This document shows positions 25,598-39,256 of a DNA stretch of 64,000 bases, piece after piece. Both the position numbers and the translations under genes were made by a program. The DNA is from an uncultured delta proteobacterium (lineage in GTDB: Bacteria; Desulfobacterota; Syntrophia; Syntrophales; Smithellaceae). The stretch spans positions 90,562 through 154,561 of the forward strand of contig CAVSCG010000013.1 of the NCBI GenBank assembly GCA_963726395.1, written 5' to 3'. Within the stretch, counting starts at the first letter, position 1. Each line of letters begins with the position of its first letter. A model generated the notes under the pieces. That model made no database searches, was not told the origin of the DNA, and worked only from the letters and a program-made list of their open reading frames with translations.

Positions 25598-26371
25598 TTA
25601 TTTTTCCGGCTTCTGAAAAAATGAAAACCGACTGGTCACCCAAGGCTCTGATTCGCCATCATAAACTTTTTCTATAAATTTTATGCTTTTATTCTTTCCA
25701 ATAAGCAAAATCGTGGATGAGCGTGTGCCGTAAATGGGGCTGGTGATAAACATCGGCGACAAGATCCTCTCCCATTCCAGATTTAAGCCGGTTTGAGGCA
25801 ACTGGCTGTCCGGCGGAACATGGCGGTCCGCCAGCAGGGCAAATAAAGCCTCCTCCAGTTCTTCTCCTTTTTGAGTGAGCGCCGCTTTAAGCAGTTTTTT
25901 GCCCCGCTTTACTTTTGGCCAGGGTGTATCCAGCAGGCGGTTGCTCAAACCGTAAATCCCGGCTGAAAGTTTTCGGGTTTCACCTCGGTTGGAGTAAACG
26001 AACAGATCTTTTAAATCACCCAGCAGAAAGTTAAAGCCGTTATAAGCGTGTGCTTTTTTGGATACACTTTTGAGATATTTTTCCGGATTGCCAGCTCCTG
26101 TCAGATACCGGCTGACCAGTTTGCCGCGGGACGGCGCTTCAGCTTTCCAGGAGGCCGGATCCCGGTAATTCGTAATGGCCGCGAATTTTCCCTCTTTGGT
26201 TACACCCAGCCATGTGCCTTTTGCTTTCAAATCAAGTCCCGCTAGAACCTGGGGATGTTTGATCCAGAAATCAGCAGGAGTAGATGGCCTATCATAAAAT
26301 TCGTCACGGTTGGCCGCCAGAATCAGACGGTATGAAGGATGAATATTGTATGCAAAAAGGATCAGACACAT
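25598..26371 (-). CDS. NRDE family protein (TANGO2/DUF833 homolog)
   Basis: 257 aa starting MCLILFAY and containing the AANRDEFYDRP motif. Confidence 0.85.
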   Translation of the reverse strand: MCLILFAYNIHPSYRLILAANRDEFYDRPSTPADFWIKHPQVLAGLDLKAKGTWLGVTKEGKFAAITNYRDPASWKAEAPSRGKLVSRYLTGAGNPEKYLKSVSKKAHAYNGFNFLLGDLKDLFVYSNRGETRKLSAGIYGLSNRLLDTPWPKVKRGKKLLKAALTQKGEELEEALFALLADRHVPPDSQLPQTGLNLEWERILSPMFITSPIYGTRSSTILLIGKNKSIKFIEKVYDGESEPWVTSRFSFFQKPEK

Positions 26372-26486: not shown

Positions 26487-27221
26487 TCATCGTCTCGCCC
26501 GCCGAGCGTCAATGCGCACATCGGCATGATGATCCTGTTCGGTCGGGCCTTTGTTGATGATCACCAGATCCGCGCCCGCCTGCTTGGCCTGAACAGGAAC
26601 GTAGGCCGCCGGATAAACAACCAGTGAAGAACCGATCACCATCATCAGGTCGCACTCCTCGGCTTCCCGCATGGCCTGAGCCAGCGTCTGCTGCGGCAGC
26701 GCTTCGCCAAAGAAAATGACGTCGGGCTTGAGAATGCCCCGGCAGTACTCGCAAGTCGGAACATTGTCGGAATCGGCATATTTTTCCTTGACCATGGCAA
26801 TGGGATAACGTTCGCGGCAGTTCAGGCACACCAGTATTTGCATGTTGCCGTGCAGTTCGCGAATGAGCGCGGGGTTGCTGCCCGCCTTCTGGTGCAGATT
26901 ATCCACATTCTGCGTAACCAGCGCACTGAGTTTGCCCATCTTTTCCAGATCAACAATGGCATAATGTGCCGCGTTAGGCATTGCGTCTTCCATCAGGCCA
27001 CCTTCGCGCAACCGCTGCCACATTTTTTTGCGCGTCGCGTGGGATCCCAAAAATTTATCGATGGTGAAATCGTCGGGATCATATTTTGTCCAAAGTCCGC
27101 CGGGACCGCGGAAATCAGGAATGCCGGATTCCGTGCTGATACCCGCGCCGGTAAAGACGACAACCTTTTTTGCTTTCGCGATCATGTCGGCTACTTGATT
27201 GATTTTTTCATCCATAGACAT
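26487..27221 (-). CDS. cobB: NAD-dependent protein deacylase (Sir2/CobB family)
   Basis: 244 aa with GAGISTESGIPDFRG, QNVDNLH, and Zn ribbon CLNC...CEYC. Confidence 0.9.
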   Translation of the reverse strand: MSMDEKINQVADMIAKAKKVVVFTGAGISTESGIPDFRGPGGLWTKYDPDDFTIDKFLGSHATRKKMWQRLREGGLMEDAMPNAAHYAIVDLEKMGKLSALVTQNVDNLHQKAGSNPALIRELHGNMQILVCLNCRERYPIAMVKEKYADSDNVPTCEYCRGILKPDVIFFGEALPQQTLAQAMREAEECDLMMVIGSSLVVYPAAYVPVQAKQAGADLVIINKGPTEQDHHADVRIDARRARR

Positions 27222-27367: not shown

Positions 27368-28102
27368 TCAACCTTGCGCCGTCACCCGCCGTAACCAGAT
27401 CCGAATATTCCGGACAACCCGTTCGTAGGTCCGAAGCACATTTTCCATATCGGGATTTCCGGCGATAATGTCGGCGTAGAGTTCGGGCGTTTCGGTGAAT
27501 ATTTTTTCAACAATATCCATTTTGGTTTTAAAGATCGGTGTGGAAAATTGATTAACCTCCACAAGCGGGATTCCGGTTTCGGCAATCGCCATGCCCAGCG
27601 CGACGGTATTGAGATGGTTGAGTGTCTGCACAATCGACATCATCCGATCATGCTCGTCGGGCGTTCTTTCCAAAACAGAATAACCGGTTTTTTCAAAGAA
27701 GGTCTTGATATAAGCATACCAGGCATCACCCCGGCCCCGGCATAAAACAATAGGATGACCCGCAGGCTCCGTGATGGACGGACCGAACAGCGGGTGGCAA
27801 CCGACCACATCCGCTTCGGAATGCTTAAGCATCAGCGCCACCGGCCCTTTTTTCAGCGAGGTTAAATCCATCAGTAACTGGCCTTGTTTCATCAGCGGGC
27901 CGACCTCCCCAATGACACCGGCAGTCGCCGCAATCGGAACGGATACGACAATCACATCACAGATATTAGCCACATCCTTGGACGTCATTTTCGTCTTCCT
28001 GCCCGTCACATGCACATGGCAGCCTTGCACTTTCAGCAGATCAGCCAGCCAGCGCCCCATGCCGTTTGTGCCGCCGATAATGCCCACGGTAATATTTTTC
28101 AT
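27368..28102 (-). CDS. tyrA: prephenate dehydrogenase
   Basis: 244 aa with GIIGGTNGMGRW Rossmann motif and HPLFGP. ATGA overlap with the aroC stop. Last gene of the aromatic operon. Confidence 0.8.
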   Translation of the reverse strand: MKNITVGIIGGTNGMGRWLADLLKVQGCHVHVTGRKTKMTSKDVANICDVIVVSVPIAATAGVIGEVGPLMKQGQLLMDLTSLKKGPVALMLKHSEADVVGCHPLFGPSITEPAGHPIVLCRGRGDAWYAYIKTFFEKTGYSVLERTPDEHDRMMSIVQTLNHLNTVALGMAIAETGIPLVEVNQFSTPIFKTKMDIVEKIFTETPELYADIIAGNPDMENVLRTYERVVRNIRIWLRRVTAQG

Positions 28103-29175
28103 CCGGAGCCCGCCTTATGTCTGAGCCAGTGGTCGGCCAGCGTAAGACACACCATGGCTTCACACACCGGCACAATCCGTGGAATAACGCAGATATCATG
28201 CCGTCCCTGAATTTCAATTGAATGACTTTGACCGTCAATGCCAATCGTCTGCTGCGGCAGGGCAATCGACGGAATCGGCTTGCAGTAAACCCGGACAATA
28301 ATATCCTGTCCGGTGGTAATGCCGGCCAGGATGCCACCGGCGGAATTTTTAGTAAAACCTTGCGCATCCATCGGGTCATTGACCTGTGAGCCTTTTTTTG
28401 CAGCCACTGCGCAACCGTCGCCTATTTCCACCGCCTTCACCGTTCCAATACTCATCAAAGCGGCCGCCAGATCCGCATCCATCTTGTCAAACACCGGCTC
28501 TCCCAAACCCGCAGGACACCCCCGTACAATAATTTCCACCACGCCACCCAATGTATCCCCTTCCCTGCGGACGGCAGCAATCTTCTCTTCCATCGCAGCA
28601 GCCGCTCGATGGTCAGGACAATACAGGGGATTCTGACGCACTTTTGCCTTCAAGTCCGGGGCCAGCATCAAGCCTGTGGTATTGCTCTCAATCCCGCCGA
28701 TGCTTTTCGTATAGGCAATCACATCTATTCCGTCAGCGGCAATCAATTTTTGGGCGACGGCTCCCGCGGCGACGCGGGCAACCGTTTCCCGGCCTGAAGT
28801 ACGTCCCCCGCCGCGCCAGTCGCGGATACCATATTTTTTAAAGTAGGTATAATCCCCATGCCCGGGGCGGAAAACATCTTTCAGGTCATTATAGCTCGAC
28901 GATTGTGCGTCGGCATTGCGGATGAGAAGCGATATCGGCGTGCCCGTCGTTTTGCCTTCAAAGACACCGGACAAAATTTCCACTTTATCTTTCTCGCCGC
29001 GCGAGGTTGAGGCCGTGCCATGGAATGGCTTTCGACGATCCAGTGCCTGTTGAATATCGTCCTCAGCCAGATCGAGGCCTGCCGGGCAGCCGTCAATCAC
29101 CGCGCCCAGCGCCGCGCCATGCGACTCCCCCCATGTGGTCACGCGAAACACGAAACCTGAAGTATTTCCCGCCAT
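28099..29175 (-). CDS. aroC: chorismate synthase
   Basis: 358 aa: FRVTTWGESHG...GGGRTSGRET...IQGRHD. Confidence 0.95.
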   Translation of the reverse strand: MAGNTSGFVFRVTTWGESHGAALGAVIDGCPAGLDLAEDDIQQALDRRKPFHGTASTSRGEKDKVEILSGVFEGKTTGTPISLLIRNADAQSSSYNDLKDVFRPGHGDYTYFKKYGIRDWRGGGRTSGRETVARVAAGAVAQKLIAADGIDVIAYTKSIGGIESNTTGLMLAPDLKAKVRQNPLYCPDHRAAAAMEEKIAAVRREGDTLGGVVEIIVRGCPAGLGEPVFDKMDADLAAALMSIGTVKAVEIGDGCAVAAKKGSQVNDPMDAQGFTKNSAGGILAGITTGQDIIVRVYCKPIPSIALPQQTIGIDGQSHSIEIQGRHDICVIPRIVPVCEAMVCLTLADHWLRHKAGSG

Positions 29176-29186
29176 ACGCTCTCCCG

Positions 29187-29756
29187 CTAAGAATTATTTT
29201 TTAACATTTTTTTCAATTTGTTTATTTCGGATACGATGCCTGCTTCCAGCAGGTACTGATAGATGTCGTCGGTTACCCGTACAACACTTTTATCTTGTGT
29301 GTCCACCGTAAAATCGGCGGCCGATTCGTATAAAGGAATACGTTCATTCAACACGGCAATCGTTTCCGCCACAAGATTTTCGGATGTCAATTGCGGGCGG
29401 CTTTGATCATCCCGAGCATCTCGTTTCAGCCGCTCGATAATATCAGGCAAAGGCGTTTTCAAATAGATCAGGGTGCCCCTATTTTTTAGCAGATCCCTGT
29501 TTGCGCAGGACAATATGGCTCCGCCGCCGGTAGCAACAACACAGGTATTCACATCGCGAAGCGACGCAATCGCTTCTGTTTCTTTTTCGCGGAATTTCTC
29601 CCATCCTTCGAGCGCGACCAGTTCTTTAATCGACATGCCCGCCGCTTCCTCGATTAACTGATCGGTATCCACAAAAGAAACTTGAAGTCTTTTGGACAGA
29701 AGCAAACCGACCGTGGACTTTCCGGACGCGCGGTAGCCGATTAGGATAACGTTCAT
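29187..29756 (-). CDS. aroK: shikimate kinase
   Basis: P-loop GYRASGKSTVG. Start MNVILIGY forms an ATGA overlap with the aroA stop. The ORF track extends to 29804. Confidence 0.9.
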   Translation of the reverse strand: MNVILIGYRASGKSTVGLLLSKRLQVSFVDTDQLIEEAAGMSIKELVALEGWEKFREKETEAIASLRDVNTCVVATGGGAILSCANRDLLKNRGTLIYLKTPLPDIIERLKRDARDDQSRPQLTSENLVAETIAVLNERIPLYESAADFTVDTQDKSVVRVTDDIYQYLLEAGIVSEINKLKKMLKNNS

Positions 29757-31024
29757 ATCTTTGACAACTCCTGCCAGAAACCGGGGAAAGATTTGTCCAC
29801 ACATTTTTTGTCGGCGATGGCGATGCCGGGCGTCACCAGAGAGGCGACGGCAAAACTCATGGCGATGCGATGATCGTTATAGGTTTCAATATTGGCCGCA
29901 TGTGCTGTTCCGCCTTCGATAACCAGTCCATCCGGCAGTTCCGAGGCATTGATGCCGATGCGGCTAAGCTCATTCACCATCGCCGCCAGACGATTGCTCT
30001 CCTTGATGCGTAAATGAGCTACGTCGGTGATGACCGTCCGCCCTTTGCGAAAAGCCGCCAGAACACCGACCGTCGGCACCATGTCCGGCATACCGCCAAG
30101 ATCAAACGTCAAGTCCCCCGCAATAAGATCGCATCCGGTCACCTCTACCCAGTTTTTTCCGCTTTCAACTCGGCAACCGAGTTTTTCCAGAATATCCAAC
30201 AGGTGAATGTCTCCCTGGACACTCTGAAGACAGACACCGGTTACGCGAATTTTCTTTTTTAAAAGCGCGGCAGCCAAAAAAAAGTAAGACGCACTGGAGG
30301 CGTCTCCCTCTACATCATAATCACAGCCCTCATACATATGCTGTGTGCCGACGATATATTGATGTTTGCCGGTTCGGATGATATTTGCACCGAAGTCACT
30401 CATGACACGAATGGTCAAATCAATATAAGGCGAGGAAACGATATGACCCTCCAGCGTCAATTCAATGCCCTTGGCCGTATATGGCCCGCACAAAAGCAAC
30501 GCGGAAACATACTGGGAACTTTCAATGTTCGAAAGGGTAATGGAACCGCCTTTCAGACCGTTGGCCAGAATTTCCACCGGCGGGCAATTGTTGCGGCAGA
30601 CTATATCAACACCCATTTCCTGAAGTGCTCCAACCAAGGGGCCGACCGGTCGTTCGCAAAGACGCTTTCCTCCTGTTAAAATGTATTTTCCCCGCCCCAG
30701 ACAGACCAGCGCCGTTAAAAACCTCAGAGCCGTACCATTGTTTCCCAGAAATATTTCATGACATGTATGGGCAATCGCGCCGCCCGTACCGTTAACGACA
30801 AAGCCTTCCGCAACCGGTTCAATGTTTGCGCCCAGCTTTTTGAGCCCCCCTATCAAATATTCAGTATCCTCAGCCATGAGCGCATGCCGGATGAGCGATT
30901 TTCCATCCGCAAGCGAAGCGGTAATCAAGGCTCTTTGTGTTAAGCTTTTCGAACCGGGCACTTCCACCATCGTCACTGTTTCTTTGATCTTGATTTCAGG
31001 ATTCAAGATTTTCCAACCTTTCAC
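29753..31024 (-). CDS. aroA: 3-phosphoshikimate 1-carboxyvinyltransferase (EPSP synthase)
   Basis: 423 aa with VPGSKSLTQRAL and LRIKESNRL motifs. Confidence 0.95.
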   Translation of the reverse strand: MKGWKILNPEIKIKETVTMVEVPGSKSLTQRALITASLADGKSLIRHALMAEDTEYLIGGLKKLGANIEPVAEGFVVNGTGGAIAHTCHEIFLGNNGTALRFLTALVCLGRGKYILTGGKRLCERPVGPLVGALQEMGVDIVCRNNCPPVEILANGLKGGSITLSNIESSQYVSALLLCGPYTAKGIELTLEGHIVSSPYIDLTIRVMSDFGANIIRTGKHQYIVGTQHMYEGCDYDVEGDASSASYFFLAAALLKKKIRVTGVCLQSVQGDIHLLDILEKLGCRVESGKNWVEVTGCDLIAGDLTFDLGGMPDMVPTVGVLAAFRKGRTVITDVAHLRIKESNRLAAMVNELSRIGINASELPDGLVIEGGTAHAANIETYNDHRIAMSFAVASLVTPGIAIADKKCVDKSFPGFWQELSKI

Positions 31025-32564
31025 GGACGGTTTTTTTCATCAATGCCAGCGGCGCTTCTCTTCCCGTCCATAATTTTAACTGCCCTGCGCCCTGGCAAAT
31101 AAACATCTCCAGGCCGGAGACGATCTTGCAGCCTTTTGCCTCGGCATCCCGAAGCAATTTGGTTTTCAAGGGATTATAAATCACATCCACCACAACCTGA
31201 TAATTGGCCGGTATCGCTGCGTCAACCGGTGATTGATGAATCTGCGGATACATGCCGACGGACGTGGTATTGATCAGAGCATCAGCTTGAATTTTGCCGA
31301 TGTCCGCAAGCGGATAAAACGGACAATCAAACCGGATGGCAAGCGCCTTTCCCTTTTCCTGAGTGCGATTAACAATTATCGGTCGGCCGCCTTCTTTTTT
31401 TATGCCATAGGCCGCCGCCCGCGCCGTACCACCCGCACCGATGATGACAAAGGTTTTTCCCGATATGCTGATTTTATTTTTTAACGCCTGCATCAATCCC
31501 AGCCAGTCCGTGTTGTAACCGGTAAGTTTTCCCGCATCATTGACAATCGTATTGACCGCGCCTAATGCGAGTGCATCCGCATCGATCTCGTCAAGATATT
31601 CCATCACTTCTGTTTTAAGCGGGATGGTTACGGACGCGCCGCGGATATTCATCCCCCGGATACCGGCAATCGCCGCGCCCGCATCGCTTACGCAAAAAGC
31701 GCTGTAATGACCCTCCACCTGCATGGCCGCAAGCGCCGTATTGTGCATCAGGGGCGACATGCTGTGACGGACGGGATTTCCCAAAAGGACAAAGGTAAGC
31801 GCATCCGAAATTGCCGGCACGGGCCGGGTTGTATGGGAAGAGCCCTTCATCAGCTGTTCAATCTGCTTCATGACCTGCACCGTCAACTGCCCGGGAGCGG
31901 ATTGTTTGCCGCCCGGTAATACGGCAAACCCCAGATAACTTCCCCACTGCGACGCCATCACGCGGCTGATTTTGCCTTCATCGCCCATGCACATGGCAAT
32001 GATGTCGCGATTCTGCGCTTTGGCATAGGCAATCAGGCTCAGCACTTTTAAGTTGTCGGACATCTTGCGGGCATAAGGAACTATCTTCACAAGATCAGCG
32101 CCGGTTTTCACGCAGGCCAGAAATATTTCTTTTAATTTCGCCAGCGAAGGCGTTTTGGAAGTATCATGCCAGGACACGATGATCCGTGTGAGGCTTTTTT
32201 GTTTGCGGCGAAAAGACTGAAGTTGCGAAATAGCTCTTTCCCCTGCTGCAAGTTCAATATCAATAAAATCAGCTCCCAATACAACCGCCTGTTTGAGCAG
32301 CTCCATCTTGGCTGTTTTGGTCATTTCCATTTTTCGTGCCGCAGGGTCGCCGGCCTCCGGAATAAGCGATTCCTCCTTCCTGCGGCAGGTGACAATTATT
32401 TTAATACGGTTGGATGCACGACGGGCAGCGGCCATCAATTGAGATAAATCACCGTCGGCAATCAAATCCATGCGCAATTCGATTGCATCAGCCGCCGGAG
32501 CGCATCTTTCAATCGCCTGGAGCGCCTCCTGATGGGTCGCTTCTGTAATGGATACACAAATCAT
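30996..32564 (-). CDS. bifunctional type-I 3-dehydroquinate dehydratase / shikimate 5-dehydrogenase (AroD-AroE fusion)
   Basis: 522 aa. The N-terminal about 240 aa are AroD-like (ICVSI...AIELRMDLI...KIV). The C-terminal half is AroE-like (LLGNPVRHSMSPLMHN, GAGGTARA). Confidence 0.9.
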   Translation of the reverse strand: MICVSITEATHQEALQAIERCAPAADAIELRMDLIADGDLSQLMAAARRASNRIKIIVTCRRKEESLIPEAGDPAARKMEMTKTAKMELLKQAVVLGADFIDIELAAGERAISQLQSFRRKQKSLTRIIVSWHDTSKTPSLAKLKEIFLACVKTGADLVKIVPYARKMSDNLKVLSLIAYAKAQNRDIIAMCMGDEGKISRVMASQWGSYLGFAVLPGGKQSAPGQLTVQVMKQIEQLMKGSSHTTRPVPAISDALTFVLLGNPVRHSMSPLMHNTALAAMQVEGHYSAFCVSDAGAAIAGIRGMNIRGASVTIPLKTEVMEYLDEIDADALALGAVNTIVNDAGKLTGYNTDWLGLMQALKNKISISGKTFVIIGAGGTARAAAYGIKKEGGRPIIVNRTQEKGKALAIRFDCPFYPLADIGKIQADALINTTSVGMYPQIHQSPVDAAIPANYQVVVDVIYNPLKTKLLRDAEAKGCKIVSGLEMFICQGAGQLKLWTGREAPLALMKKTVRERLENLES

Positions 32565-33640
32565 AGTCCGTCCTTGGCCTGGGGATACGATCCCAATATT
32601 TTCAAATGAATCGTTTTATCTTTTAATTCATTCAGGCAGCTTTTAACGGCTTTGTCACGCATGTGACCGATCATATCCACGAAGAAAAGATACTCCCACA
32701 TTCTTTCTTTCACTGGGTGCGATTCAATCTTCGCCAGATTGATCTTTCGTTTGGCAAAGGAAGCCAGCGCACGATGCAGCGCTCCCGGAAAATCCGGTGT
32801 AGCGAAAATAATCGATGTTTTATCATGATCCGTGGGTGTCCCGTCACCCCGGCCGATCACCAGAAACCGCGTGGTGTTTGAGGAATTGTCTTCAATGCCT
32901 TCCGCCAGCATATTCAGGCCGTAAGTGGATGCGGCAAGCGCGCTGCCGATGGCCGCGGCCGATTTTTTCCCACGCACCATCTGTACGGCCGCCGCCGTGC
33001 TTTCCATTTCGCCCAACACGGCATTAGGCAGATGGGCGCGAAGCCAGGCCTGGCACTGCGCCAGACCTTGCGGATGCGAATAAACATTTTTGATGCCATT
33101 CATGCTTTTGGCAGATGATATCAGGCACTGACTGATGCGCAGATACATTTCCGCCTGAATTTTCAAGGGCGTTAAAACCAGCCGGTCCAGTGTCACATTC
33201 ACCGACCCTTCCAGTGAATTTTCCACGGGCACAACACCCCATTCCACGGCGCCTTTTTCCACTTCATCGAAGACACGCGCAATGCCCTGCTGTGGCCAGA
33301 AACGGCTGGACGTACCGAAATGCAGTCGCGCCGCCTGATGGGAAAAGGAGGCTTCCGGCCCCAGGTACGCAATGTTCATGGGCTTTTGCAGATCGCGTGA
33401 CGCGGAAAGGATCTCCCGAAAAATCGACGTCACCTGACGGTCCGACAGAGGCCCGTCATTGAGTTCCTGTAAATAGTGAAGCACTCTCGCTTCCTGCGCC
33501 GGATTATAAACCTCAAGGCCGGTCTGGCCTTTCACCTGGCCGATCCGGACGGATATTTGCGAGCGTTCATTGAGCAGCCGGATAATTTCCCGATCCTTTT
33601 TTCTCATATCTTCTCTTAGTTCATCCAGCGACAGCTTCAT
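32561..33640 (-). CDS. pheA: chorismate mutase / prephenate dehydratase (P-protein)
   Basis: 359 aa: N-terminal CM helix bundle, PDT domain, and C-terminal ACT domain (FPGALHRALASFAKRKINLAKIESHP). Confidence 0.9.
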   Translation of the reverse strand: MKLSLDELREDMRKKDREIIRLLNERSQISVRIGQVKGQTGLEVYNPAQEARVLHYLQELNDGPLSDRQVTSIFREILSASRDLQKPMNIAYLGPEASFSHQAARLHFGTSSRFWPQQGIARVFDEVEKGAVEWGVVPVENSLEGSVNVTLDRLVLTPLKIQAEMYLRISQCLISSAKSMNGIKNVYSHPQGLAQCQAWLRAHLPNAVLGEMESTAAAVQMVRGKKSAAAIGSALAASTYGLNMLAEGIEDNSSNTTRFLVIGRGDGTPTDHDKTSIIFATPDFPGALHRALASFAKRKINLAKIESHPVKERMWEYLFFVDMIGHMRDKAVKSCLNELKDKTIHLKILGSYPQAKDGL

Positions 33641-34732
33641 GCTTTCATCTCCTCCAATACATCGCCAATCAGTTGTTCACTGATGCTGCCGTTGACAAAG
33701 GGCATGCCTATTTTTTTAATCAGGACGAAATGGATCACACCATCCTTTTTCTTCTTATCCATCTTGAGACGGCCGATGACGGCTTTCGGATCAAAGGAGG
33801 CCAAAATCCTGGTCGGGAGTCCCGCTTGAGCAATGACGTGTTCCACCCGGATCAATTCATCTTCCGACAAGATATTGCATTTTCACCGACAGCTTGGCGG
33901 CGGCAACCATGCCCAGCGCCACGCCTTCGCCATGCGACAGCGCATAGTCAGATACGGTCTCGAGGGCGTGCCCTAGGGTATGGCCGAAATTCAGAATCCT
34001 GCGGAGCCCTTGTTCCCGTTCATCGATTTCCACAATGGATTTTTTAATCCGGCAGCAGGTTTCAATCATTTTCACCCAATGAACGGAATCCCTGCTTTTG
34101 ACCGCATCCATATCCTCTTCCAGCAGCTGAAATAATTTTTCATCTTCAATGATGCCGTATTTAATGATTTCGGCCAGACCGTTATTAAACTCTTTGTCCG
34201 GCAACGTATCGAGAAAATTCAAATCCACAAACACCGCACGCGGCTGGTAAAATGTCCCCAGCAGGTTCTTTCCCTGAGGCAGATCCACGGCCGTTTTTCC
34301 GCCAATCGCGCTGTCCACCTGACCGACAAGGGTGGTCGGAATCTGAATATAAGGAACCGAGCGCATATAAACCGATGCGATAAAGCCCGTCAGGTCGCCC
34401 ACTACTCCGCCGCCCAATGCGACAAGAAGCGTTCCCCGATCGGCGCCTTCGGCCAAAAGCCTTCCGGTTATATCCATGACTGTTGACATATTTTTGGAGG
34501 ACTCGCCTGCAGGAATTTCCATAACCGACGCCTTCAAACCCGCTTGAGTCATGGCGGCAAGTAGGGTCTGCCCATAGAGCCTGTTCACATTGCTGTCGGT
34601 CACTATCACATAGCGCGAGGCCTTGTGGTTTTTGGCAATGAGCAGAATCACCCGGTCCATAATGTTTTGACCGATGCGGATTTCATGAGACGACAATATT
34701 TTTTTATCAAGATTGACTTTCAATGTTCTCAT
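33637..34732 (-). pseudogene. aroB: 3-dehydroquinate synthase, C-terminus displaced by one frameshift
   Basis: A 291-aa fragment (GGGVVGDLTGFIAS, LNFGHTLGHALE) ends ...AAKLSVKM. It continues in another frame as (N)ILSEDELIRVEHVIAQAGLP... (33637..33870). The shift lies at about 33870-33880. Confidence 0.9.
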
Positions 34733-34747
34733 ATTTGCTCCATGGCT

Positions 34748-35759
34748 TTACTTGCGCATCGCTTTGGCGAGCGCCCGCACATCATCCATCAGTTGATAGA
34801 ATTTTTCAGGTTTCAGAGACTGCGCGCCGTCGGAAACCGCTTTCTCCGGTTCGGGATGCACCTCCACAATGATGCCGTCCGCGCCGACGGCTACAGCTGC
34901 GCGCGCCAGCGGAATAACATACTTCCAGTTACCGGCGGCATGGCTGGGATCGACCACGACCGGCAGATGGGTCAAGCTTTTCAGCACCGGCACGGCGCTG
35001 ATGTCCAACGTGTTGCGGGTGGCCGTTTCAAAGGTGCGGATGCCCCGTTCACACAAAATGACATGGGGATTGCCCGACGACAGAATGTATTCCGCCGACA
35101 TGAGCAGTTCTTCGATCGTGGTCATCATCCCGCGCTTGAGCAGCACCGGTTTGCGGGCATGGCCGACTTTCTTGAGCAGGGCGAAGTTCTGGACATTGCG
35201 CGCGCCGATTTGCAGCATGTCGGCATAGGATTCCACCAGATCAACGTCCGCGGGATTGACCACTTCGGTCACCGTCGGCAGACCTGTTTTTTTGCTGACG
35301 GAATCCAGCACTTTCAGGCCTTCTTCCTCCATTCCCTGGAAGCTGTAAGGCGAGGTGCGCGGTTTGAAGGCCCCGCCTCTTAAAATCTGTCCGCCGCCTT
35401 TTTTGACAATATAGGCGCTCTCCAGCAACTGCTCTTCGCTTTCAATGGCACAGGGCCCGGCCATCACGACAAACTCAGGGCCGCCGATGGCAATGGATCC
35501 GACGTTAATCACCGTATCGCCTTCGTGTGATTCGCGACTGGCCAGTTTGTAGGGTTTCAGAATCGGCATGGTTTTTTCCACACCCGGCAGCGATTCCGCG
35601 TATTTCAGCACGGCTTTATCGCGATTGTCACCGACCGCTCCGATAATGGTGCGCGCAACACCGCTGGAAGGATGCGCCTTGTAGCCGACCGATTCGATCC
35701 ATTGAAATCACATCCTCAATCTGTTTTTCTGTTGCCTGACTTTTCATGACAATAATCAT
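34748..35759 (-). pseudogene. 3-deoxy-7-phosphoheptulonate (DAHP) synthase, type I-beta with N-terminal ferredoxin-like regulatory domain, one frameshift
   Basis: MIIVMKSQATEKQIEDVIS then a frame change (extra A in TCAATGG at about 35702) to WIESVGYKAHPSSGVARTIIGAVGDNRDKAVLKYAESLPG... The catalytic core contains GPCAIESEEQ and KPRTSPYSFQG. Confidence 0.9.
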
Positions 35760-35775
35760 AAATACCCCCTTCAAT

Positions 35776-35875
35776 GAAAAAAGGCCATGGCTTTTGCCGC
35801 CACGGCCTTTTAAAACAGAAAAGCCATGGGCAGCTGACTTTCGATCCACCCATGGCTGTTTTGGTTTTTGTTACT
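35776..35875 (-). promoter_or_regulatory. candidate transcription attenuator: two terminator-like hairpins with an alternative antiterminator pairing
   Basis: Minus-strand RNA segments: seg1 AGCCAUGGG (35849-35857); seg2 CCCAUGGCU (35822-35830) followed by UUUUCUGUUUU; seg3 AAAAGGCCGUGG (35800-35811); seg4 CCAUGGCCUUUU (35779-35790) followed by U6. The 2:3 pairing (11 bp including 2 G.U) excludes both the 1:2 and 3:4 hairpins. Confidence 0.65.
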
Positions 35876-35971
35876 TTACCAAGTCCTCCTCAGCGACAGG
35901 CAGACCGACGCATAATAGTAATAAAACCAGAAGCCAAAAATATTGTTGTTTGCGTTGATATGTCTGTTCAT
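35876..35971 (-). CDS. candidate leader peptide rich in aromatic codons (MNRHINANNNIFGFWFYYYYASVCLSLRRTW)
   Basis: A 31-codon ORF below the track's length cutoff. It has 3 Phe, 1 Trp and 4 Tyr within codons 12-20. It sits between the promoter and the attenuator hairpins, upstream of the shikimate/Phe/Tyr operon. Confidence 0.65.
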   Translation of the reverse strand: MNRHINANNNIFGFWFYYYYASVCLSLRRTW

Positions 35972-36001
35972 TGGAAAAACCTGTCCTTTTAGTTGTGGTG
36001 C

Positions 36002-36030
36002 TATATAAACGAGAGACTCCTGCTTGTCAA
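36002..36030 (-). promoter_or_regulatory. sigma70-like promoter of the aromatic amino-acid operon
   Basis: The minus strand reads TTGACA (36030-36025), 17 nt, TATATA (36007-36002). Confidence 0.55.
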
Positions 36031-36085
36031 GAAAATTATTTTTATTGCCCCTTGCCGAAAATACACCAACAAAGCTGTTATTTGC

Positions 36086-39000
36086 TTAAGCCTTTTTCAA
36101 ACCGCGGCTTCGCCAGATCATATAAATGGCCGGATAAATAATCAGCTCTAAAATCGTAGATGTGATAACGCCTCCGATCATGGGCGCGGCGATTCGCTTC
36201 ATCACATCCGCACCCGCGCCGTCGCTGAACATGATCGGAATTAAGCCGGCCAGAATGACGCACACCGTCATCATCTTGGGGCGGATGCGTTTGACCGCGC
36301 CGATACATGACGGCATCTTCAGATCACTTCTTTGTTTTCAAGAAGCCCTTCTTTCTTCCATTTCTCATAAGCCAGATCCAGATACAAAAGCATGACGACG
36401 CCTGTTTCGGCATCCAGGCCGGCAAGCGCGATGATGCCCACCCACACGGCAATGCTCATGTTGTAATTCAGAAGGTAGAGAAGCCAGAAAGAACCGACCA
36501 GCGAGAACGGCACAGCCAGCAAAACAATGGCGGTCTTGGTCACCGAGTGCGTATTGAGAAACAGAATCAGAAAATGATACAGCAGCGTAAAGGGAATAAT
36601 CAGCTTCAGACGCTCGTGCGTCTTCAGAATATACTCGTATTCCCCGCTCCAGACCAGGCGGTAGCCTTCCGGCATTTTGAGCGTTGCCGCTTTTTTGCGG
36701 GCCTCTTCCACATAACCTCCGACATCGCGATCGCGTGATATCAATATACACATAGGAGGTCATAAGGCCTTCTTCGCTTTTAATCGCCGTCGGTCCGCGG
36801 ACGACGCGAAAATCAGCCAGTTCGCCCAACGGAACCTGTAAAATGCCGTTGGCTGCGGTCATCGAGGACGGAGGACGCCTGACTGACGCTGGCGGCTGTC
36901 ATCACCGGCACAAGAATGCGTTTGAGTTTATCCACGTCATTGCGCAGTTCCCGCGGGTAGCGGATATTCACGGGATAGCGCGCCCGGCCTTCCACCGTGG
37001 TGGTGAGATTCATGCCGCCGATAGCGGTTTGAATGACTTCATTGACATCATCCACCGCCAGACCATATCGGGCAATGCCTTCTCTTTTAATGACAATATC
37101 CAGAAAATAGCCGGTCGCTACCCTTTCCGCATAAACACTGCGCGTGCCGGGAATCATCCCGCAAATGATGCTCCAGAGTCCATGCCGATTTTTTCAATTA
37201 CTTCCAGATTCGGCCCCAGGATTTTAATGCCCACCGGCGTACGGATACCCGTGGCCAGCATGTCAATGCGCGCCTTGATCGGCATGGTAAAGGAATTGGC
37301 TACACCGGGAATATTGAGCGCATCATTCATTTCATCTTTGATTTTTTCCGCCGTCATGCCTTTGCGCCACTGATCTTCCGGCTTCAGATTGATGACGGTT
37401 TCAAACATTTCCAGCGGCGCCGGATCGGTGGCCGTTTCCGCCCGGCCGGCCTTACCGAAGACCTGGGCAACTTCCGGAATTTTCATCAGGATTTCATCCT
37501 GCATTTTCAGTAGTCTGCGCCGCTTCTGATAGCGGAAGCTCCCGGCATGGTCACGGGCATATAGAATAGCGATCCTTCATAAAGAGGCGGCATAAATTCC
37601 GATCCCAGTTTCATAAAGGGATAAGCGGTCAGAGCCATAATGATGATGGCAATAACAATAACCGTTTTGCGGAAACGGATGGCCAGGTGGGCCACCGGTT
37701 CATAAATTTTATGCAGAAAACGGCTCACGGGATTTTTTTCTTCCGGCCGTATTTTCCCCCGGATGAACAACGTCATCAGCACTGGTGTCAGCGTAATCGC
37801 CAGAAATGAGGAAAAGAGCATGGCAAATGTTTTGGTATAGGCCAGCGGTTTGAACAGACGTCCCGCCTGCGCCTGCAGCGTAAAGACGGGCAGAAAGCCA
37901 CAGTGATCACCAGCAGGGCAAAGAAAAGAGACGGCCCTACTTCCTGGGCGGCGGCAATGATGACATCCGTTCTGTTACCGGGGCTTCCCTGCTGCTCCCA
38001 TTCTTCGAGCTTTTTATGGGCGTTTTCCACCATAATGATGGAGGCATCCACCATCGCTGCCGATGGCGATGGCAATGCCGCTCAAGACTCATGATATTGG
38101 ATGTCACGCCCAGATAATACATGCAGATAAAAGAAATGATGATGGCAATGGGCAGCGTCACAATCACCACCAATGCGCATGGCAGATGAAATAGAAAGAT
38201 CAGGCAGACAACACTCACGGCAATAGCCAGTTTAATAATTTCATCTTTGAGTGTGGCGATGGATGCGATGAATCAGGTCGGAGCGGTCATACGTCGTGAC
38301 AATTTTCACGCCTTTGGGCAGACTGGGCGCAATATCATTTTTGATTTTATCTTTGACCCGCTCAATGACATTGAGAACGTTTTCGCCGAAACGGACAACA
38401 CAATCCCTCCGGCCACTTCTCCTTTGCCGTCCAGTTCCGCCAGTCCCCGGCGAATTTCCGGCCCGAGCTGCACACGGGCGACATCTTTCAAATAGATGGG
38501 CGTGCCCGCCGCACTGGCCCCCACGGCGATATCTTCCAGATCCTTTACATTCTTGATGATAGCCACGACCCCGCACCATGTATTCCGCGCCGGAAAATTC
38601 CAGCACCCGTCCTTCCACATCCCGGTTGCTTTTGCGCACGGCTTCCATGACTTTAGCGATCGGGCAGATTATAAGCAGACAGGCGATTGGGATCGACAGT
38701 GATCTGATACTGATTGACGAAGCCGCCGATGCTCGCCACCTGAGACACACCGGCAACGCTTTCCAGCGCCAGCTTGACGTTATAGTCCTGAAGTGAACGA
38801 AGTTGCGCCAGATCGAGCCCGCCTGATTCATCCACAACGGCATAGGAAAATCCCCAGCCAAGGCTGGTGGCATCCGGGCCTAAAACCGGATTGACATCGG
38901 TGGGGATTTTATTTTTGACGGCCTGAAGGTATTCCAATATGCGGCTTCTGGCCCAGTAGATATCGGTCCCTTCTTCAAAAATGACATAGATGAAGGAACT

Positions 39001-39256
39001 GCCTAAAAAGGAAAATCCGCGCACCGCCTGGACTTTCGGCGCGGCAAGCAGAGTGGAGGTGATGGGATAGGTGATCTGATCTTCCACCAGGTCGGGGCTG
39101 CGACCCGGCCATTCGGTATAAATGATAACCTGTGTATCGCTTAAATCGGGAAGGGCATCAAGCGGCGTATTTTTGAGCGTCCACAATCCCCAGACCACGG
39201 CAAAAAACAAAACAGGAAAACAATAAATTTATTGCGGGCGCTGATTCAATGATTTT
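36086..39256 (-). pseudogene. cusA: CusA/CzcA-family heavy-metal efflux RND permease, fragmented by at least 13 frame changes
   Basis: About 11 ORF fragments tile a complete CusA-like sequence, from MIGKIIE..SARNKFIV..FFAVVWGLWTLKNTPLDALPDLSD at the N-terminus to ...[47 protein letters not shown] at the C-terminus. The ATG at 39256 forms an ATGA overlap with the cusB stop. Confidence 0.9.

Follow-up and report, generated by a model that had tools for sequence, protein, structure and literature searches.

Predicted leader-peptide attenuation of a shikimate/Phe/Tyr operon in Smithellaceae and recurrence of its RNA scaffold in Syntrophales

Attenuation of transcription by a translated leader peptide is established for the pheL-pheA and trpL-trpEDCBA operons of Escherichia coli, and runs of codons for the end product are the hallmark of hungry-codon sensing (trpL, pheL, hisL). 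In the hisL leader of Salmonella and E. coli, the hairpins A:B, C:D and E:F alternate with B:C and D:E, and in the leu/phe leader motif of Lactococcus a single RNA chassis recurs before genes for different amino acids, each time with another codon run. Leaders with aromatic codons in front of a gene for DAHP synthase (DAHPS) have also been described: according to the account of Neshat et al. 2014 given in a later paper, the aroR leader of Corynebacterium glutamicum contains the residues Phe-Tyr-Phe and lies upstream of the aroF (DAHPS) operon, the transcription of which rises upon ribosome stalling and responds to limitation for Phe, not Tyr (PMC11802643), and in Acholeplasma the uORFC-13-1 motif is a predicted upstream open reading frame (ORF) with Phe codons that lies adjacent to an intrinsic terminator before aroF, again encoding DAHPS (PMC8632094). 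The element considered here lies on the minus strand of a 64,000-nucleotide stretch of contig CAVSCG010000013.1 (the window), in front of eight genes for the shikimate pathway and for the synthesis of phenylalanine and tyrosine, and is very probably a ribosome-mediated (leader-peptide) transcription attenuator of that operon. An earlier, sequence-only reading of the window had arrived at leader-peptide attenuation, which is now supported by the conservation of the ORF, the codon run, the hairpins and the promoter, by compensatory changes, and by the match between codons and downstream genes. Its remark that no mixed leader was known to govern the common pathway is only partly right, since mixed Phe/Tyr leaders before DAHPS are known from C. 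glutamicum and predicted in Acholeplasma; the kind of leader is therefore not new.

The coordinates of the leader, its predicted RNA segments and the operon are collected in Table 1. The 31-codon ORF that the sequence-only reading had pointed out upstream of the DAHPS gene is present, with three Phe, one Trp and four Tyr codons at codons 12-20 (F-G-F-W-F-Y-Y-Y-Y), so that eight of nine positions are aromatic. Among 5000 dinucleotide shuffles of the 326-nt intergenic region, a single one produced an ORF with eight aromatic codons within a stretch of 10 codons. An AGG followed by a U-rich spacer is conserved 5' of the aligned leader start codon, and the GGACAGG of the window probably functions as the Shine-Dalgarno (SD) motif of the leader, which is itself likely to be translated. 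The spacer between the ORF and the first hairpin comprises 17 nt and is A-rich. In an exact look-up of ten leader peptides in a collection of 15 billion proteins none was present, and thus gene callers apparently never report them.

Table 1. Positions of the leader elements and of the operon in the window
Feature	Positions	Strand	Basis or remark
-35 hexamer TTGACA	36025..36030	minus	direct reading; same position in 66/70 aligned relatives
-10 hexamer TATATA, 17-nt spacer after -35	36002..36007	minus	direct reading
SD-like GGACAGG, end 9 nt before leader ATG	35980..35986	minus	direct reading
Leader ORF, 31 codons + stop, MNRHINANNNIFGFWFYYYYASVCLSLRRTW	35876..35971	minus	direct reading and translation
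Segment -1, leader start region AUGAACAGAC, consensus (C/U)GAUGG(A/G)CAGA	35962..35971	minus	complementary to segment 0
Codon run, codons 12-20, UUU GGC UUC UGG UUU UAU UAC UAU UAU	35912..35938	minus	direct reading
Segment 0 (predicted 5' strand of the antiterminator), GGUCUGCCUGUCGCUG, leader codons 22-27	35891..35906	minus	pairs with segment 1 over 15 bp
Segment 1, CAGCCAUGGGUGGAUC, 5' arm and part of the loop of hairpin A	35843..35858	minus	direct reading and pairing with segment 0
Hairpin A (segments 1:2), stem 35857-35846/35833-35822, with U-rich UUUUCUGUUUU	35812..35857	minus	RNAfold; first terminator (predicted)
Hairpin B (segments 3:4), AAAAGGCCGUGGC/GCCAUGGCCUUUU, 35811-35779, with U6	35777..35811	minus	RNAfold; second terminator (predicted)
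SD motif of DAHPS, GAAGGGGG	35765..35772	minus	direct reading
DAHPS gene, ATG at 35759	35759-34748	minus	frameshifted in window assembly
TyrA gene	28102-27368	minus	Pfam
Regulated operon (predicted)	27368..35759	minus	Pfam assignments

When one genome per species was scanned with the DAHPS protein, 80 loci with 75-97% identity were obtained, all of them assigned to Smithella, Smithellaceae, Syntrophaceae, Syntrophus or Syntrophales. By the taxonomy of these genomes the host belongs to Smithella/Smithellaceae (Thermodesulfobacteriota, Syntrophia, order Syntrophales), and the earlier expectation of relatives in the Desulfobacterales was not borne out. The same reading had proposed that a short ORF with clustered Phe, Trp and Tyr codons should be sought in relatives, and an orthologous leader ORF was indeed found at all of the 80 genome loci with enough upstream DNA, as well as at about 100 metagenome loci. 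Seventy leaders were aligned (alignment A1), and counts out of 70 refer to this set. All 70 have 27-33 codons, 6-11 of them aromatic; they start with ATG in 68 cases and with GTG (L010) and AAG in one case each. Tyr codons are present in all 70 leaders, Phe codons in 69 and Trp codons in 65, and both synonymous codons are in use (TAT 214, TAC 54, TTT 169 and TTC 32, next to 71 TGG). The C-terminus of the peptide, ..VCPSLRR(T), is conserved in most of the leaders in front of the aro operon. In two Smithella loci, L021 (2930-3913) and L024, a gene for an HMGL-like protein (PF00682) is inserted between the leader and DAHPS, so that the leader lies 1095 nt upstream, and this gene appears to have joined the attenuated operon. 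The metagenome-assembled genome MFD04716.bin.2.259 contains two DAHPS loci on different contigs (L045 and L046), each with an aromatic leader of its own, which may reflect a duplication or strain heterogeneity.

The promoter TTGACA-N17-TATATA described in the sequence-only reading was found where it had been placed on the minus strand. Not only the -35 hexamer is conserved; a -10-like hexamer (at least 4 of 6 matches, 16-18 nt spacing) is present in 53 of 70 relatives, and the leader promoter is a conserved promoter of predicted sigma-70 type. A simple consensus scanner for promoters and terminators missed the leader promoter as well as both hairpins, which is attributed to its rules, under which a -10 hexamer has to end in T and a loop may not exceed 8 nt: TATATA is left out because its position 6 is an A, and a scanner with rules that exclude such features is uninformative for this leader.

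Folding with RNAfold, which had been proposed earlier for a comparison of the alternative structures, recovered both hairpins in the minimum free energy (MFE) structure as well as in the centroid (-72 kcal/mol, z = -2.75, none of 200 shuffles as good). The pairings 1:2 and 3:4 were correctly described, and both hairpins are kept in relatives with compensatory changes, as had been anticipated for their stems: 94% of the alignment cells are paired in either hairpin, and five pairs of hairpin A and eight pairs of hairpin B have changed on both sides. At least six T are found in the 9 nt after the stem of hairpin A in 68 of 70 relatives and after the stem of hairpin B in 65 of 70. The U-tract is missing from hairpin A in L012 and L033 and from hairpin B in L057 and L069, and L072 (3824-3936) has hairpin A as its sole terminator. 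At least one predicted working terminator is always present, and usually there are two; the tandem design is usual and not obligatory as judged from the alignment. Transcription would be expected to terminate at A as well as at B.

As RNAalifold returned solely the two terminator hairpins for the whole alignment, each alternative pairing was named and counted separately. The most conserved nucleotides of the alignment are not the aromatic codons but two blocks, GGUCUGCC(C/U)(G/A)UCGCUG, which encodes '..VCPSL..' and corresponds to segment 0 near the end of the leader ORF, and CAGCCAUGGGU(A/G)GAUC, which forms the 5' arm and the loop of hairpin A. The two blocks are complementary to each other. 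Over the 15 bp between segments 0 and 1, 93.2% of the cells are paired in the 70 sequences, compared with 27-43% after displacement of the partner by 1-3 alignment columns, and this level was reached by none of 500 shuffles. One of the pairs covaries (GC 28, UA 15, CG 3). The median energy of the duplex is -21.6 kcal/mol, versus -10.1 kcal/mol with a shuffled partner, and that of hairpin A is -20.9 kcal/mol. The loop of hairpin A would thus be conserved because it pairs with segment 0.

The distance from the last aromatic codon to the start of segment 0 has a median of 5 nt. The stop codon always lies between segments 0 and 1, at 3-17 nt downstream of the former, and 14-29 nt separate it from the start of the latter. 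The sequence-only reading had noted with some concern that the regulatory codons lie about 50 nt upstream of segment 1, farther than in classical attenuators; since segment 0 is located just 3' of the codon run and pairs with segment 1, this concern is resolved. The switching logic it had drawn up from the pairings 1:2, 2:3 and 3:4 was right as far as it went, but incomplete, the link to the sensor being a fifth segment, segment 0, inside the ORF. The 2:3 pairing is possible in 92% of the cells.

A further, weaker complementarity involves segment -1, at the start of the leader. It is in register with segment 0, with 80% of the cells paired versus 22-48% in slid controls, and the mean pair probability in ribosome-free nascent leaders is 0.44-0.70. 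Segment -1 may hold segment 0 in transcripts that are not translated. Two other candidate pairings were rejected. The pairing of codons 13-16 (GGCUUCUGGUUUU) with AAAACCA..AGCC, which had been read from the window, was set aside as an element of the whole family: it is possible in 69% of the cells, no more than in shuffles, and has support within the Smithella clade only. A 1:4 pairing via the common CCAUGG palindrome was dismissed by eye as an antiterminator, because it would comprise at most 7 bp and would itself adjoin the U-tract.

The conservation of the C-terminus ..VCPSLRR(T) in most leaders of the aro operon could also be taken to mean that the leader is a nascent arrest peptide of the TnaC type, which senses free aromatic amino acids in the exit tunnel and uses VCPSLRR as its arrest motif, and the two rare AGG codons after segment 0 (AGG accounting for 6% of the Arg codons of the operon) would fit such an arrest. 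This is very improbable in view of what the same nucleotides encode elsewhere. In three leaders (L023, L032 and L036) a 1-nt indel shifts the frame after the aromatic run and the nucleotides of segment 0 are kept, and in L122, L143 and L151 as well as in all Phe-class leaders, which precede other genes (see below), a different reading frame runs through the block (..SAHRLW, ..SAHGRAG), again with the nucleotides retained. The peptides over segment 0 thus vary with the frame (..VCPSLRR, ..CIGLPV, ..SAHRLW, ..SAHGRAG) and are unrelated to one another, whereas the RNA is the same, and as judged from these leaders the constraint over segment 0 is on the RNA, not on the peptide. Furthermore, the logic of such a device would be inverted, because a biosynthetic operon would be switched on by an arrest that occurs when the amino acid is available, and a run of 6-11 end-product codons points to hungry-codon sensing.

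The two AGG codons deserve an observation of their own. They follow each other directly 3' of segment 0, at leader codons 28-29 (GAGGAGG, SD-like, 35890-35885, minus strand); of the 126 Arg codons in the operon genes 7 (6%) are AGG, fewer than for any other Arg codon, and in 38 of 70 relatives a GGAGG intervenes between segment 0 and the stop codon. The paired codons could slow the ribosome over segment 0.

Taken together, these elements suggest the following mechanism of attenuation. Transcription would start at the conserved promoter, and the 31-codon leader would be translated while it emerges from the polymerase. When aromatic aminoacyl-tRNAs are plentiful, the ribosome would pass codons 12-20 and reach codons 22-31 and the stop codon, where segment 0 would be covered or sterically kept from segment 1; with segment 0 unavailable, 1:2 pairing would form terminator A, and polymerases that escape A would meet terminator B (3:4). 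When one of the aromatic tRNAs is scarce, the ribosome would stall in the aromatic run upstream of segment 0, which would then pair with segment 1 once segment 1 leaves the polymerase. Segment 2 would thereby be freed and pair with segment 3, segment 4 would be left without a partner, neither of the terminators would form, and the operon would be transcribed. In untranslated transcripts the weaker pairing with segment -1 may keep segment 0 occupied. The attenuator would thus sense the charging of Phe-tRNA, Tyr-tRNA and, in most relatives, Trp-tRNA.

Folding of the window RNA with a modelled ribosome footprint agrees with part of this scheme. The nascent RNA adopts 0:1 when the A site is placed at F12, W15 or Y17, and, once extended to segment 3, it contains 0:1 together with 2:3 if the A site is at F12 or Y17. 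Placement of the A site at R28 prevents 0:1, and hairpin A forms. In 60-62 of the 70 leaders, 0:1 is the MFE structure of a transcript that ends in the loop of hairpin A. However, a number of results weigh against the proposed switch. With the A site at Y20 the 0:1 pairing is abolished, as a ribosome on the last Tyr codons would cover the 5' part of segment 0, and in the model only a ribosome halted within the first two-thirds of the run should bring about antitermination. Whatever the mask, 66-69 of 70 complete leaders adopt A + B, and for transcripts that reach segment 3 the two states occur about equally often among the 70 leaders, which implies that the switch would have to be kinetic, as in classical attenuators, with the outcome set by the freedom of segment 0 at the moment when segment 1 emerges. 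Simple masking fails to mimic what a ribosome positioned at the stop codon would do, and ribosome-free nascent RNA still prefers 0:1 in the model, 0:1 being much stronger than the weak -1:0 pairing (median -8.4 kcal/mol, -5.8 kcal/mol in the window). Thermodynamic footprint masking alone cannot separate the stalled from the unstalled outcome, and no proof of ribosome dependence is claimed. The 2:3 pairing shows no covariation beyond the CCAUGG palindrome that is common to both hairpins, so the pairing proposed in the sequence-only reading is permitted, but not independently proven by covariation.

The last point on this side is that the first two genes of the operon, DAHPS and AroB, are frameshifted in the window assembly. 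The quality of this assembly is poor. The DAHPS gene has an extra A at about 35702 (35700-35705, minus strand; GTGATTTCAATGG versus GTGATTTCATGG), which is not shared by L123 and L145, two metagenome contigs of 99% identity. AroB is cut short at 291 amino acids (33640-34732, minus strand), and the CusA/CzcA-like efflux gene upstream of the leader (36086-39210, minus strand) is distributed over numerous ORFs. The pattern suggests indel-prone sequencing rather than pseudogenes.

In spite of these points, all features of the trp/his/phe-type attenuators that can be assessed in a sequence were found at this locus: a short ORF with a start codon and a ribosome-binding site in the 5' leader of the operon; a cluster of codons for the amino acids made by the regulated genes; intrinsic terminators between the leader ORF and the first gene, in the form of two GC-rich hairpins with U-tracts; an antiterminator pairing that excludes the terminator (0:1, with the same logic in the trpE paralogues described below); and a stall/stop geometry with which footprint-masked folding agrees for stalls at codons 12-17. 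The assignment as an attenuator thus draws on sequence-level observations: the ORF and its codon run, the predicted terminators and the pairings that compete with them, the spacing of these elements, and the agreement of the codons with the downstream genes.

The match between codons and genes became apparent when metagenomes were scanned with the RNA core alone (GTCTGCC..GCCATGGGNNGA..CCATGGYTT), which gave 120 loci. One of them, L189, was rejected as a member of the family, being a chance match to the pattern without a leader. Mixed leaders that contain Tyr codons were found in all 91 metagenome loci with DAHPS downstream and the leader on the contig. At 13 other loci (L086, L095, L100, L102, L114, L117, L133, L144, L157, L162, L170, L176 and L181) the same chassis contains a pure Trp run, for example MAGLAHKTLLGWWWWANISAGVCPS followed by the stop codon, which stands directly after segment 0; in L133 the chassis is located at 8443-8311 on the reverse strand. 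The gene behind the Trp-run leaders is monocistronic and encodes a secreted outer-membrane protein of about 300 amino acids with the domain PF13557, Phenol_MetA_deg (E = 3e-82). This suggests a Trp- or indole-related channel that is induced by shortage of charged Trp-tRNA; the indole-induced iif operon of Acinetobacter baumannii also includes a PF13557 protein (PMC4577076). Four further loci (L091, L125, L137 and L187) have Phe runs (..GGFFFKK.., ..FTGFFF..) and read segment 0 in a different frame, ending in ..FDFIGFTGGFFFRKSAHGRAG, ..GGFFFKKSALWLKR and MAFRFFYWFQRFTGFFFIKSAR before the stop codon. They precede a PaaK-type AMP-binding ligase, accompanied in two loci by TPR and ACT-pair proteins, or a Peripla_BP_6 binding protein, and may mark genes for the salvage or uptake of Phe.

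A search with a profile of the chassis gave a single copy in the window (35909-35776, E = 6e-36). Diverged second copies with WWW leaders were found before trpE-trpG-trpD on two contigs that also contain the aro leader, namely L175 (2834-2971, plus strand) and L163 (527-436, minus strand). Their segments 0 and 1 are unlike those of the aro chassis in sequence, yet complementary to each other (-23.5 and -28.2 kcal/mol), and the same applies to 2:3. Across about 120 loci, the class of the codons matches the class of the downstream gene without exception. It is somewhat more likely than not, and clearly less certain than the attenuator itself, that the element belongs to a lineage-wide family built on one attenuator chassis with exchangeable codons, which defines an aromatic amino-acid regulon in the Syntrophales. 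If this is true, the identity of the codons would predict the substrates of uncharacterised uptake and salvage genes, such as a Trp/indole channel or a phenylacetate-to-Phe salvage pathway, and the tandem terminators with the 0:1/2:3 relay would represent a distinct high-stringency design.

The very high conservation of segment 0 and of the hairpin A loop is of the kind that is seen in ligand-binding RNAs, and translation of the leader ORF is a prediction; the conserved RNA might thus be a riboswitch or an antiterminator that binds a protein or a tRNA (TRAP-, PyrR- or T-box-like), with an incidental and untranslated ORF. Such an explanation is very improbable. No match to the Rfam leader families (Phe, Trp, His, Leu, Thr, leu/phe) was obtained for the window at the gathering threshold, and no leader family, T-box or riboswitch was recognised within the leader for positions 35600-36200 at E values up to 10, or in nine related loci; at the permissive threshold there were chance hits only (LhrC, microRNA hairpins), owing to the two hairpins. 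The conservation of the loop is accounted for by its complementarity to segment 0. The ORF keeps its start, its stop between segments 0 and 1, and its length of 27-33 codons in 70 of 70 leaders, and its aromatic codons vary synonymously and in their order, but stay aromatic. The switch of the run to WWWW or FFF coincides exactly with a change of the downstream gene, which a fixed binding pocket would not predict; a codon run that changes with the downstream pathway on a fixed scaffold fits ribosome-mediated sensing, not an RNA that binds a ligand or a protein.

That the hairpins are instead ordinary tandem terminators of the upstream efflux gene, or insulators, with an ORF that arose by chance in a U/A-rich spacer and an unregulated start of the aro operon, is extremely improbable. 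The CusA/CzcA-like gene does end upstream on the same strand (at 36086), and terminator pairs after genes are common. But the 17 nt between the U-tract of hairpin B and the ATG of DAHPS are too few to accommodate a promoter, and one with a conserved TTGACA is located 3' of the efflux gene and 5' of the leader. The leader accompanies DAHPS in relatives with different genes on its upstream side, and an ORF that occurs in 1 of 5000 shuffles is conserved in about 180 loci.

The genes under the proposed attenuation control are, in the order of their Pfam assignments, DAHPS, AroB, PheA, an AroD-AroE fusion, AroA, AroK, AroC and TyrA. The gene content had been listed correctly in the sequence-only reading, but the order had not, PheA being the third gene and AroA preceding AroK. 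DAHPS consists of an FXD (ferredoxin-like regulatory) domain and the catalytic domain DAHP_synth_1, and PheA of the domains CM_2, PDT and ACT. The gene order behind the leader is identical in all relatives as far as the fetched DNA extends, and all eight genes are visible in seven loci. The SD motif of DAHPS lies outside hairpin B, which argues that control is exerted on transcription and not via sequestration of the SD motif. Directly downstream of tyrA and on the same strand, there are genes for a SIR2-family deacetylase (26487-27221, minus strand) and for a TANGO2-family protein (25598-26371, minus strand). Rfam recognises a single riboswitch in the window, a ydaO/yuaA leader of the c-di-AMP class (RF00379; 58654-58784, minus strand; 91.6 bits, E = 3e-20), which is unrelated to the aro leader.

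Several aspects of the attenuator are new: the lineage in which it occurs, the RNA family, the long run of codons for three amino acids, the control of eight genes, the two terminators that are linked by a relay, and the reuse of the chassis throughout a regulon. A search of the literature on leader peptides in Syntrophus, Smithella and delta-proteobacteria found nothing relevant. The RNA family is undescribed and has been missed by annotation, as it is not contained in Rfam and its peptide has never been called as a gene. If the proposed mechanism operates, it shows how slow-growing syntrophs such as Smithella and Syntrophus control a costly pathway for aromatic amino acids: one sensor of tRNA charging would read Phe, Tyr and usually Trp together and would gate eight genes, on top of the allosteric domains of DAHPS and PheA. 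In addition, the class of the leader could be used as a functional label for adjacent transport and salvage genes of unknown specificity, such as the gene for the PF13557 protein and the PaaK/ACT cluster. The understanding of attenuation itself is unchanged; the attenuator is mechanistically familiar and almost certainly works like the classical trp, his and phe attenuators.

It shares with pheL-pheA and trpL-trpEDCBA of E. coli a run of end-product codons, a terminator, and a mutually exclusive antiterminator that would be set by the position of the leading ribosome, and with pheL-pheA also the regulated gene product, PheA (CM-PDT; PMC11802643). There is no homology to these leaders in Rfam, however, and the design differs in four respects: three amino acids are mixed instead of one; eight genes are affected, which cover the common pathway as well as the Phe and Tyr branches; two terminators are joined by a relay (0:1, 2:3) instead of one; and the stalled ribosome would reside upstream of the antiterminator strand and not on a 'segment 1'. 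The relay of several segments that starts from the position of the ribosome resembles hisL, which has 7 His codons compared with 6-11 aromatic codons here, but hisL has a single terminator instead of two terminator-like hairpins and serves one amino acid instead of three, and the sequences are unrelated. With aroR-aroF of C. glutamicum, which can be compared by functional description only, the leader has in common that mixed aromatic codons precede a DAHPS operon; the former belongs to the Actinobacteria and contains three regulatory codons, whereas eight, including four Tyr and one Trp, are present here, in front of a whole-pathway operon and together with tandem terminators. The uORFC-13-1 motif of Acholeplasma is restricted to Mollicutes, contains at least one Phe codon and no long mixed run, and has another consensus, which is not matched here. 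Lastly, the reuse of one chassis in the leu/phe leader of Lactococcus is paralleled by the F/Y/W, W and F classes of the present family, although the former belongs to another phylum, has another structure, and its Rfam model does not match the aro leader.

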